Below are positions 35,505 to 36,785 of a stretch of DNA of 64,000 nt, piece by piece; positions within the stretch are counted from its first letter, which is position 1; each line of letters starts with the position of its first letter. The notes beneath the pieces are model-generated. The model was not told the DNA's origin. It searched no databases and was given only the letters and a program-made list of their open reading frames with translations. This DNA is from Escherichia coli (GTDB lineage Bacteria > Pseudomonadota > Gammaproteobacteria > Enterobacterales > Enterobacteriaceae). Where the stretch lies: assembly GCF_030384885.1 (NCBI RefSeq), contig NZ_CP128613.1; one strand, given 5' to 3'. Both the position numbers and the translations under genes were made by a program.

Positions 35505-36785
35505 CTATAGCTGTTTATTCCAGAGATGCTTGAAAATATCTAATGTTGAGACAACATTGGCAGGCGACATTCGGTTTAATGAGGGTAGAAAGGGATGAGC
35601 CTCCAGGAAGTTGATAAAACGAGTCGCGCTTGCCAACGTCGAATACCGCATTTCATTTGCTTTCTTGTTTCCTGTAAGGTTACAAACAGCCATTGAATAA
35701 TCACGGGCGGAAAATGCACGCCAGACATTATTTCTCACGCCACCACTCAAAAATAACCGCGGCGGCGTATCATAATGAGTCGTTTTCTCGCCGCGTTCTT
35801 TCACAAAGGAAATATGGCACCGGCTTTGATGAATGTGCTGTAAGTTAGCCATCAGACAACCGCCTAATATAAAGCACTCGTGATCAAGGTAGTGTTGAAT
35901 ATTTATAGAATATGCTTCAGTCAGTGCTCTAACCAGTTCAAAATGGCGATATGCCGGAAGAACCGGTTTCACCAGCATCCCCGGATCGTTTTGATGTAAT
36001 ATCGCCCGACCATAATCAATATCAAATAAGGTATCACGCCGCATAGTAAGTAACTCCTTGCGTTGTACGTGATGCGCCAGTGTACCTGGAGACAAACGCT
36101 CTTCATAACTTGATGCATATTGATAATGCGACTCTACCGCTGATGAAGAATAATTTGTTGAAATAGCGACGACTCTACCGCTTTGTTCTTCTGCGGTAAC
36201 AAGACTATAAAGATAGTTGTTACTACCGTTAAACTTTACGCGAAAAGCGCGGGTAGCGAGAGAAATATCAGAAGCAGAAGAGTACTGGCAACTTTCTTTA
36301 TAGTTTACTTCCCGGGCTAGTTTCATCAACTCACGGTTAAGCCCTGTGCTATTAAGAAGTAATAATTTACGGATATCTGCAAGTGAAGCGCCTTGCTCAA
36401 TCATCAATGCTAAATGTGTTCTTCGCGGCGTTGTATTTACATGATCCAGAGTGATAAAAGTTCTGGAACAATGATGACAATACATTCTCCTCTGCCCCTG
36501 AGCTGAATAGCCATACTTTTTCAGAGATGTGCTTCCGCAAGCTGAACATTGTGGAACCAACCCTCTCCATGAATGATTAACACGATTACGATAAATATTA
36601 AGAGATCGTTCAGATATCACAGGAAACAAGTAACCGCATTCCCGACATAAAATATTTTTGCCTTGTGCAATATAATCCTGGCTATTCAACAACCCCAGGT
36701 TTTTGCATCCTGGTGTTTTGCAACAATCAACATTTACGTTGGTAAACATATTCACTCCCTGCGAATACCCGGATATTATCGTCAT
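35505..36785 (-). CDS. Cys-rich zinc-ribbon protein of unknown function (last gene of sulfatase cluster)
   Basis: 426-aa ORF; N-terminus carries CCx4C plus three CxxC pairs (CRECGY, CSACGS, CHHCSRTF); no CxxxCxxC radical-SAM motif seen. Confidence 0.5.
   Translation of the reverse strand: MTIISGYSQGVNMFTNVNVDCCKTPGCKNLGLLNSQDYIAQGKNILCRECGYLFPVISERSLNIYRNRVNHSWRGLVPQCSACGSTSLKKYGYSAQGQRRMYCHHCSRTFITLDHVNTTPRRTHLALMIEQGASLADIRKLLLLNSTGLNRELMKLAREVNYKESCQYSSASDISLATRAFRVKFNGSNNYLYSLVTAEEQSGRVVAISTNYSSSAVESHYQYASSYEERLSPGTLAHHVQRKELLTMRRDTLFDIDYGRAILHQNDPGMLVKPVLPAYRHFELVRALTEAYSINIQHYLDHECFILGGCLMANLQHIHQSRCHISFVKERGEKTTHYDTPPRLFLSGGVRNNVWRAFSARDYSMAVCNLTGNKKANEMRYSTLASATRFINFLEAHPFLPSLNRMSPANVVSTLDIFKHLWNKQL

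Follow-up and report, generated by a model that had tools for sequence, protein, structure and literature searches.

The Cys-rich open reading frame studied here encodes a protein, hereafter called X, which may be an exapted (domesticated) transposase that now acts as a local DNA-binding regulator of the sulfatase operon in which it lies. We give this reading about an even chance. The ancestry and the structure of X are well supported, and its function is what we infer from them and from the neighbouring genes. The analysis was done on a 64-kb stretch of Escherichia coli DNA (the window, 64,000 nucleotides in its full length). It is chromosomal and matches strain 2013C-4282 (NZ_CP027579.1) at 100% identity.

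The coding sequence of X

The longest ORF, of 426 codons, lies at 35505..36785 on the minus strand and carries all four Cys motifs quoted in an earlier note on this DNA, which had given the length of the protein as 426 aa. This length has to be corrected. Met13 of the longest ORF is the start (MF...) in 45/45 aligned orthologues, a Shine-Dalgarno sequence (AGGGAG) is located 5 nt 5′ of the ATG at 36749, and RefSeq annotates X as a protein of 414 aa (WP_001353477.1). Because these three lines agree, the real CDS is 35505..36749. The sequence upstream of the ATG at 36785 was checked for a Shine-Dalgarno motif and none was found; judged by sequence, the 12 codons in front of Met13 are probably untranslated. 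All residue numbers below follow the 414-aa scheme, and adding 12 converts them to the scheme of the earlier note.

35505..36749, minus strand: X, true CDS, 414 aa plus stop (orthologue starts, Shine-Dalgarno, RefSeq)
36750..36785, minus strand: 12 extra codons of the longest ORF, probably untranslated (missing in 45/45 orthologues; no Shine-Dalgarno)

Close homologues with 52-97% identity occur across the Enterobacteriaceae, and within Escherichia the dN/dS of X is 0.08-0.13. The reading frame is therefore far beyond chance. There is no paralogue of X elsewhere in the 64-kb window.

Zinc ribbons and the InsA-type DNA-binding module

Two zinc ribbons had been proposed for the N-terminus, and the conservation pattern bears this out: eight Cys residues are invariant or nearly so in the close and in a much broader family, and they form two four-Cys sets (C10, C15, C35, C38 and C68, C71, C91, C94). 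The first Cys (C9) of the motif CCKTPGC is unconserved.

36636..36722, minus strand: zinc ribbon 1, C10/C15...C35/C38 ((near-)invariant Cys; AF2 beta strands 26-43)
36468..36548, minus strand: zinc ribbon 2, C68/C71...C91/C94, of the InsA / IS1-IS1595 type (NCBIfam, Pfam, hhalign)
36291..36428, minus strand: HTH module (residues 108-153), a homologue of the IS1 InsA HTH (hhalign; AF2 helices 108-153)

Zinc ribbon 1 matched no library model. The second ribbon is recognised by the NCBIfam model NF050000 (IS1_IS1595_Zn) with 31.8 bits at a cutoff of 28, and the Pfam model Zn_ribbon_InsA matches 8/48 family members at E<=1e-3. The equivalog model of the IS1 transposase (NF033558) reaches just 28.5 bits (cutoff 100) and aligns with its model positions 1-84 only. 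In total, NCBIfam covers only residues 80-111/163 of X. Single-sequence scans of X against Pfam, the PDB, PHROGs and PADLOC gave nothing beyond zinc ribbon 2.

The relation to IS1 becomes clear by profile comparison. With hhalign, residues 64-146 of X align to positions 4-89 of IS1 InsAB′ with a probability of 95.4% (E 1.7e-8), and this span is the entire InsA module, zinc finger plus HTH. The N-terminal 155 residues are basic; their net charge is +11 in this protein, and the median of the family is +9. An IS-family transposase had been named among the candidate architectures, and this matches the ancestry now seen in the InsA-type module and in the predicted RNase H-like fold described below.

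The sulfatase operon and the wider family

In the window the genes on the minus strand follow in the order dnaK, dnaJ, a Tsx/OmpK-like channel, a sulfatase-family gene, X, nhaA and nhaR, with mokC/sok on the plus strand between dnaJ and the channel gene.

38393..39154, minus strand: Tsx/OmpK-like outer-membrane channel, 253 aa, first gene of the module (RefSeq 'OmpK'; Pfam Channel_Tsx in orthologues)
36879..38372, minus strand: periplasmic sulfatase-family protein, 497 aa, partner gene (NCBIfam arylsulfatase / choline-sulfatase)

The formylglycine position of the sulfatase is Ser79 in Escherichia, in the motif LSSPSR, as compared with LCSPSR in other genera.

The tight linkage to the sulfatase that had been noticed at this locus is real, with a spacer of 93-129 bp, and the pairing extends to every enterobacterial locus examined (~30). 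X is placed directly after the sulfatase or the radical-SAM/SPASM maturase (anSME) in 21/21 species-representative loci, drawn from Escherichia, Citrobacter, Salmonella, Phytobacter, Klebsiella, Kluyvera, Kosakonia, Buttiauxella and Franconibacter, and orthologues hold the same operon position in more than 10 genera. In most genera the module consists of the Tsx-like channel, a Cys-type sulfatase, anSME and X, the last starting 4-27 bp after the anSME gene. Salmonella and Citrobacter modules additionally contain arylsulfotransferase genes and a periplasmic 5′-nucleotidase; in Salmonella, X is flanked by anSME and an arylsulfotransferase gene, upstream of nhaA. Relatives at 32-43% identity keep the order channel, sulfatase, anSME, X at other chromosomal sites. 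X is the sole protein of DNA-binding type in the module. A DNA-inversion switch was considered for the channel gene that is inverted in Salmonella and Citrobacter, and rejected: that channel is 55-57% identical, lies with a 5′-nucleotidase and thus belongs to a different module.

Searches for homologues were done at two depths. A word-indexed search returned 55 homologues, all enterobacterial, of ~415 aa and 52-97% identity, which carry the source names 'cytoplasmic protein' or 'IS1 family transposase'. The exhaustive profile search against 1.84 billion representatives gave 326 matches, among them ~35 full-length proteins of 400-520 aa with 17-41% identity. When the C-terminal domain alone was used as query, only proteins of Enterobacteriaceae and Vibrionaceae were found, including a cluster of 1805 members named for V. 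parahaemolyticus; none of these proteins has a Pfam domain in the C-terminal region. Longer relatives of ~600 aa are present in AFDB from Geobacter, Thiocapsa and Paraburkholderia; UniProt E8WS89, E8WJC5 and A0AAP5BKH7 are examples of such longer proteins.

In the distant branch no sulfatase is nearby. Instead, 6/6 distant members adjoin or are divergent from genes for a 5′-nucleotidase, DeoD/PNP or NupC. The Enterovibrio relative follows a 5′-nucleotidase gene after 36 bp, the Photobacterium relative an UshA-like 5′-nucleotidase gene after 75 bp and the Vibrio relative deoD after 4 bp; two relatives from metagenomic lineages lie beside PNP/Udp-family and NupC genes, and a second, shorter copy of Klebsiella type is divergent from an UshA-like gene. 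The record with this shorter copy is labelled as a Pseudomonas plasmid, and its neighbours metF, metB, metJ, rpmE and priA look like a Klebsiella chromosome.

The neighbourhood evidence fits an accessory role of X as well as a regulatory one. As a protein-level accessory of the sulfatase, X would be, for instance, a cytoplasmic holdase or targeting factor which hands over the pre-sulfatase, still unfolded, to formylglycine formation or to export. The short distance between anSME and X in most genera suggests co-translation, X is never apart from the sulfatase in the enterobacterial clade, and in one distant lineage a relative of X is convergent with an anSME gene. However, anSME has been lost and X kept together with the sulfatase in Escherichia, K. 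oxytoca, K. spallanzanii, Kluyvera intermedia and Phytobacter massiliensis, and the retention of X in these five lineages speaks against a function that depends on the maturase; purifying selection on X acts in at least five lineages lacking anSME. An accessory role also sits poorly with the InsA-type DNA-binding module at the N-terminus and with the sulfatase-free neighbourhoods of the distant homologues. Chaperone-like features were not found in X by Pfam/NCBIfam, and neither was a radical-SAM/SPASM or FGE domain in the Pfam/NCBIfam scans. We consider this role unlikely.

The core fold and the catalytic positions

The remaining ~300 residues had been described as free of recognisable motifs. 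By sequence this stands, since Pfam finds none; by predicted structure it does not, as this part adopts an RNase H-like fold. A first AF2 model built with 46 close orthologues had a pLDDT of 56, with residues 215-376 unusable, and was replaced by a model from a 78-sequence alignment (pLDDT 92.7, pTM 0.92). Here, the N-terminal part consists of ribbon 1 (10-38), a helix (47-61), ribbon 2 (68-94) and a three-helix HTH (108-153). It is followed by three long antiparallel strands (161-198), helix 224-237, strand 258-260, helix 263-280, strand 283-288 and helices 292-307, which end the core, and then by four strands (311-357) and a helical bundle (364-413).

35829..36269, minus strand: RNase H-like core, residues 161-307, beta1-beta2-beta3-alpha-beta4-alpha-beta5-alpha
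35679..35819, minus strand: four-strand beta segment after the core, residues 311-357, with the invariant W343 (AF2, conservation)
35508..35660, minus strand: C-terminal helical bundle, residues 364-414 (AF2, pLDDT >90)

The predicted topology of the C-terminal part is that of the RNase H-like transposase/integrase fold. Sequence-based searches do not reach this relation. PDB profile searches with the full family or with the C-terminal domain gave nothing, or C2H2 fingers by Cys composition. The IS1 DDE domain (Pfam PF03400 / full-length NF033558) is absent from X by Pfam and NCBIfam, and hhalign of the C-terminal domain against IS1 yielded a probability of 0.3%, a weak negative given how shallow this IS1 profile is (sequences of at least 65% identity).

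The catalytic positions were assigned from the predicted secondary structure. The lack of conserved acids described next is independent of the exact register and dependent on the predicted strand assignment. No conserved D/E is present on beta1 (161-173) or near the end of beta4 (255-266) in the 78 sequences. Position 164 is always hydrophobic (L/M/I/V) and followed by the conserved Thr166, which recalls a DxT motif that has lost its Asp; at position 262, 75/76 sequences have Pro. Conserved across the whole family are Y211, R238, Y246, P262, H269, H290, E291, W343 and an acidic residue at 187, the latter in 61/74 sequences; position 291 is acidic in 75/75. In the model, E291 stands at the N-terminal end of the helix that follows beta5, which is the place of the catalytic Glu in integrases. 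On the predicted fold, the DDE triad is thus incomplete: both canonical Asp positions are without a conserved acidic residue and only the E291 position is kept. As neither Asp position holds a conserved acid, X has most likely lost the ability to cut or join DNA. The core is remodelled rather than merely decayed, because a set of polar residues including E291 is conserved family-wide, and the low dN/dS is consistent with this.

Such a set of residues raises the question of a rebuilt active site. X might be a nucleic-acid enzyme, be it a site-specific nuclease, a recombinase or a nucleotide-processing enzyme, with E/D187, H290-E291, H269, R238 and Y246 as its site; on the model, a non-canonical active site could be made up of E/D187, E/D291, H290, H269 and R238. 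The family, otherwise 17-30% identical, has several invariant residues that are polar or charged, E/D187 on beta2 would be paired with position 164 on the opposite hairpin strand, beta1, if the predicted register holds, and E291 takes the integrase position just mentioned. The RNase H fold hosts many nucleases, and the neighbouring genes handle nucleotides and nucleosides. On the other side, hydrophobic residues, or K/R then Pro, take the canonical Asp positions, and neither DNA rearrangement nor repeats or target sites are seen around X. The locus is collinear across genera, and the PADLOC defence-system models gave no family for X at E<=1. An enzymatic function is, in our judgement, quite improbable.

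Candidate cis elements

The gap between the sulfatase gene and X contains an intrinsic terminator with a conserved 5′ part, and two further candidate elements precede the channel gene.

36790..36853, minus strand: intra-operon intrinsic terminator in the sulfatase-X gap (terminator scan, cross-genus conservation)
36832-36853, minus strand: 22-nt box of the terminator element
36801-36831, minus strand: 14-bp hairpin of the terminator element, followed by a T-run
39267..39334, minus strand: candidate promoter elements 5′ of the channel gene, Box A (39315-39334) and Box B (39267-39283)

The 22-nt box, TATGCCACTTAGGGCnATGCCC, is nearly invariant across genera and the neighbouring stem covaries, with compensatory changes in 10/18 pairs. 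The element occurs once per locus, immediately 5′ of anSME/X, and the box survived the deletion of anSME in Escherichia. A second, inverted copy of the box was looked for at the loci and not found, and at the loci of distant homologues the box is absent; the relatives at 32-43% identity are without a match to its 12-mer. Rfam has no match to the terminator/box element. The box contains GCCACTTA, which resembles what we take to be the core, CCAACTTA, of the IS1 inverted repeats bound by InsA; by rough estimate the chance of such a resemblance is ~0.05.

As a variant of the regulatory model, X might bind this box, as DNA or as RNA, and set the read-through into anSME and X, which would amount to autoregulatory attenuation. 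The near-invariance of the box next to a covarying stem, its place directly in front of anSME/X, its persistence after the loss of anSME and the likeness to the presumed IS1 repeat core all speak for this variant. Against it, the box is missing in the distant and in the 32-43% relatives, no Rfam family describes it, and the element may be a plain terminator with a processing or stability signal. We see a slim chance for attenuation by X.

Boxes A and B are collinear and 50-51 bp apart in six lineages, with mismatch totals of 16-17 as compared to 19-21 in shuffles. From its sequence, Box B looks like a CRP-like site.

Copy number, mobility and selection

Megablast of the CDS found X in 1171/5426 complete E. 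coli genomes (22%), ST131 strains among them, once in each and always on the chromosome; no plasmid copy was detected among the 5426 genomes. The slot between dnaJ and nhaA is common to Escherichia, Salmonella, Klebsiella, Citrobacter, Phytobacter and Kosakonia, and the place after sulfatase/anSME and before nhaA is also held in E. albertii. Here and in all orthologues X is one uninterrupted ORF, of 414 codons in this genome, and a -1 frameshift or two-ORF organisation is absent. Inverted repeats flanking the ORF were looked for and none were found. A 14-nt repeat (35474-87 / 39283-96, 86%), the only one spanning the island, was considered as IS ends and rejected as being at chance level.

The earlier note had reasoned that strong homology to a characterised transposase, together with flanking inverted repeats, would indicate a mobile-element remnant. 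The homology does exist, in the IS1 InsA module, whereas the inverted repeats do not. X is not mobile; since its InsA homology comes without inverted repeats, a second copy or mobility, it is a cluster component of transposase descent and not a remnant of a mobile element. That X is an inert, decaying IS remnant without host function is effectively refuted by the conservation data, despite the automatic annotation of relatives as 'IS1 family transposase' and the restriction of the island to just 22% of E. coli genomes, because the frame is intact in 1164/1171 copies (>=80% coverage), dN/dS is ~0.1, the operon position is the same in more than 10 genera and IS ends are missing.

Proposed function of X

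The regulatory reading can be put as a sequence of steps. X has retained the full IS1-type layout, with an extra zinc ribbon, an InsA-type zinc ribbon, an HTH and an RNase H-like core, and has become a single-copy, vertically inherited host gene within the operon of Tsx-like channel, periplasmic sulfatase and, where present, anSME. Its basic zinc finger-HTH module would recognise a particular DNA sequence within the operon or close to it, by analogy with InsA at the IS1 ends. The remodelled core (R238, Y246, H269, H290-E291, W343) might serve oligomerisation and/or the sensing of a small-molecule effector, which would probably be tied to the scavenging of nucleosides, nucleotides or sulfate esters by the neighbouring genes. 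InsA is a repressor of transcription which binds the ends of IS1, and it is therefore most economical to suppose that X binds DNA via its InsA-like module and regulates the adjacent scavenging genes. Literature searches on X found no paper or experiment.

A broader view may be taken tentatively, as a possible rather than a probable one: the family would be an unrecognised class of bacterial transcription factors, derived from a DDE-type IS1-like transposase whose catalytic pocket was rebuilt as an effector sensor (R238, Y246, H269, H290-E291, W343), and controlling periplasmic scavenging modules. It would comprise the Enterobacteriaceae and Vibrionaceae proteins of ~400-520 aa whose C-terminal ~260 residues have no Pfam model, with the Tsx-like channel and sulfatase as targets in enterics and 5′-nucleotidase, DeoD and NupC in vibrios. 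On this view, there would also be a hint that the 'sulfatase' has a nucleotide- or nucleoside-linked sulfate ester as its substrate.

Comparison with known systems

Like X, InsA and InsAB′ of IS1 have a CxxC...CxxC zinc ribbon followed by an HTH, and in InsAB′ as in X this DNA-binding module precedes an RNase H-like core. In comparison to InsAB′ (232 aa), X is ~180 residues longer, has an extra zinc ribbon in front and needs no -1 frameshift. In sequence, its core is not recognisably similar to the IS1 DDE domain, and it has no conserved acid at D1/D2. Unlike the IS1 element, X is single-copy, syntenic across genera and without inverted repeats. Judged by DDE domain, two-ORF frameshift, inverted repeats and mobility, X falls outside the IS1 family. 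Because its C-terminal domain has no sequence relation to the IS1 catalytic domain, the ancestor could also have been from another IS family with a Zn ribbon, for example IS1595 or IS256/IS1249.

On the level of predicted structure, X shares the RNase H-like core with ISCth4 of the IS256 family (6xg8), Tn5 (1mm8) and retroviral integrases at an identity of 6-12%. In contrast to their DDE cores, it is without the two Asp of the triad and adds a beta segment and a helical bundle. By its modelled fold, X thus belongs to the RNase H-like transposase/integrase superfamily, minus the catalytic Asp pair.

Transcription factors derived from transposases are exemplified by FHY3/FAR1 of plants, from Mutator-like transposases, and by the bacterial TldR repressors, from TnpB. 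The route proposed for X would be the same, with the DNA-binding module kept, catalysis lost and the gene fixed as a single-copy host gene; the ancestral families differ and the comparison is an analogy only. A functional analogy may be drawn to CytR and DeoR as well, given the neighbourhoods of X and its relatives with a Tsx-family channel, 5′-nucleotidase, DeoD, NupC and a CRP-like box. These regulators, of the LacI and DeoR families, are unrelated to X in fold and ancestry.

The domestication of transposases is well documented in eukaryotes. To our knowledge, no domesticated regulator from a DDE-type IS1-like transposase is known in bacteria, and literature searches found no description of one. 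With X, a complete transposase architecture has become a fixed host gene, and it has been one for at least as long as the Enterobacteriaceae exist. Neither X nor its C-terminal domain has a curated family, with relatives occurring throughout the Vibrionaceae. The immediate value of these findings is a well-defined, testable hypothesis about a function that we infer. If it is true, it corrects a widespread mis-annotation as 'IS1 family transposase' or 'cytoplasmic protein', and if X is the regulator of its operon, it would offer a handle on the uncharacterised sulfatase/Tsx module of Salmonella, Klebsiella, Citrobacter and about one fifth of the E. coli genomes.

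Formylglycine Position and Maturase of the Sulfatase

Ser-type sulfatases normally require anSME, the radical-SAM sulfatase maturase, whose gene is located in most genera outside Escherichia between the sulfatase gene and the gene of X, the Cys-rich, IS1-type-transposase-like protein. We compared the maturase gene and the formylglycine site in the Escherichia loci (L019-L023) with those in the comparison set (L002-L010 and L025-L036). Two features of the window are concerned:

38136-38138, minus strand: Ser79 codon of the sulfatase gene at 36879-38372, the formylglycine position
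36750-36878, minus strand: spacer from the sulfatase gene to X, without an anSME gene in the locus comparison

The anSME gene has been lost from all Escherichia loci, comprising both allele classes of E. coli, E. albertii, E. whittamii and Escherichia sp., and the sulfatases of all Escherichia loci compared carry Ser at the formylglycine position (LSSPSR). Cys (LCSPSR) was found there in all non-Escherichia loci with a match to the motif pattern. Four non-Escherichia loci, L029-L032, are also devoid of anSME, and their sulfatase keeps the Cys (LCSPSR). The Escherichia sulfatase gene is under strong purifying selection, with dN/dS values of 0.03-0.06. The Escherichia Ser-type sulfatase may require a different maturation enzyme, AslB or YdeM, or its chemistry may be altered. 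In PMC6189696, Benjdia et al. 2007 (PMID 17303125) is cited with regard to Ser-type sulfatases and anSME.

Candidate Regulatory Elements

Conserved elements were detected both upstream of the Tsx-like gene and in the gap that separates the sulfatase gene from the next gene:

39267-39334, minus strand: Box A and Box B upstream of the Tsx-like gene, conserved in six lineages
36790-36853, minus strand: 22-nt box, 14-bp hairpin and T-run in this order, with cross-lineage conservation

Box A (AAAACAACATnTTnTGACAC) and Box B (TGaGATcTnCATCAC) are separated by 50-51 bp in six lineages. Since Box B reads TGTGATATCTCTATCACA in two lineages, it resembles a CRP site and is regarded as a candidate CRP-like element. 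Downstream of the pair follows a -10-like element, TAnAnACT, and the whole arrangement is reminiscent of the layout of CRP/CytR-type nucleoside promoters. The second element occurs once per locus. Its box is nearly invariant and reads TATGCCACTTAGGGCnATGCCC in most genera, and the hairpin stem shows compensatory changes at 10 of 18 pairs (8 lineages). A search against Rfam yielded no matching family for the box and hairpin. The element looks like a putative regulated intra-operon terminator.

Alleles of X and Surroundings of the Island

The comparison of the X coding sequence (35505-36749) with E. coli genomes revealed two deeply diverged allele classes and no intermediates. The window type (at least 95% nucleotide identity) is present in 230 genomes, and the second allele, with about 81% identity to the window, in 941, ST131 and O6:K2:H1 among them. 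Between the window and the Escherichia locus L020, dS drops from 0.97 in X to 0.31 in the sulfatase gene and 0.04 in the channel gene; these unequal values mark the locus as a recombination mosaic whose breakpoint lies close to the sulfatase gene's 3′ end.

Further features lie around the three-gene island:

39618-39700, plus strand: sok antitoxin RNA (Rfam, 68.4 bits), part of the type I toxin-antitoxin locus hokC/mokC
35474-35487 and 39283-39296: 14-nt inverted repeat (86%) around the whole island

The repeat probably brackets the island by chance. The sok/hokC/mokC locus is located directly past the island edge; in E. coli K-12, IS186 occupies the hokC-nhaA interval in place of the island. 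Downstream of nhaR, an AT-rich block (27000-33000; GC 31-39% versus about 52% around it) comprises a fimbrial operon, in which the chaperone gene carries a frameshift and the usher gene is truncated, as well as a gene beside rpsT that RefSeq annotates as a 'type III effector'. This block has the look of an island that was acquired horizontally and has partly decayed.

Distant Homologues of X

Genes for nucleoside or nucleotide scavenging, encoding a UshA-like 5′-nucleotidase, DeoD/PNP and NupC, adjoin all six distant members of the X family examined (L013, L016, L018, L042, L043 and L044). The L044 record, NZ_CP039131.1, is linear, 51 kb long and labelled 'Pseudomonas sp. A2 plasmid unnamed4'. 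It carries metF, metB, metL, metJ, rpmE and priA and looks like a mislabelled, Klebsiella-like chromosomal fragment. A Metallophos domain is present in the database protein P0341 (528 aa) of the X family, probably as a fusion or by a gene-call merge with an upstream 5′-nucleotidase. Because distant homologues of X adjoin scavenging genes, our results suggest that a nucleotide-related compound may likewise be among the substrates of the 'sulfatase' module in enterics.
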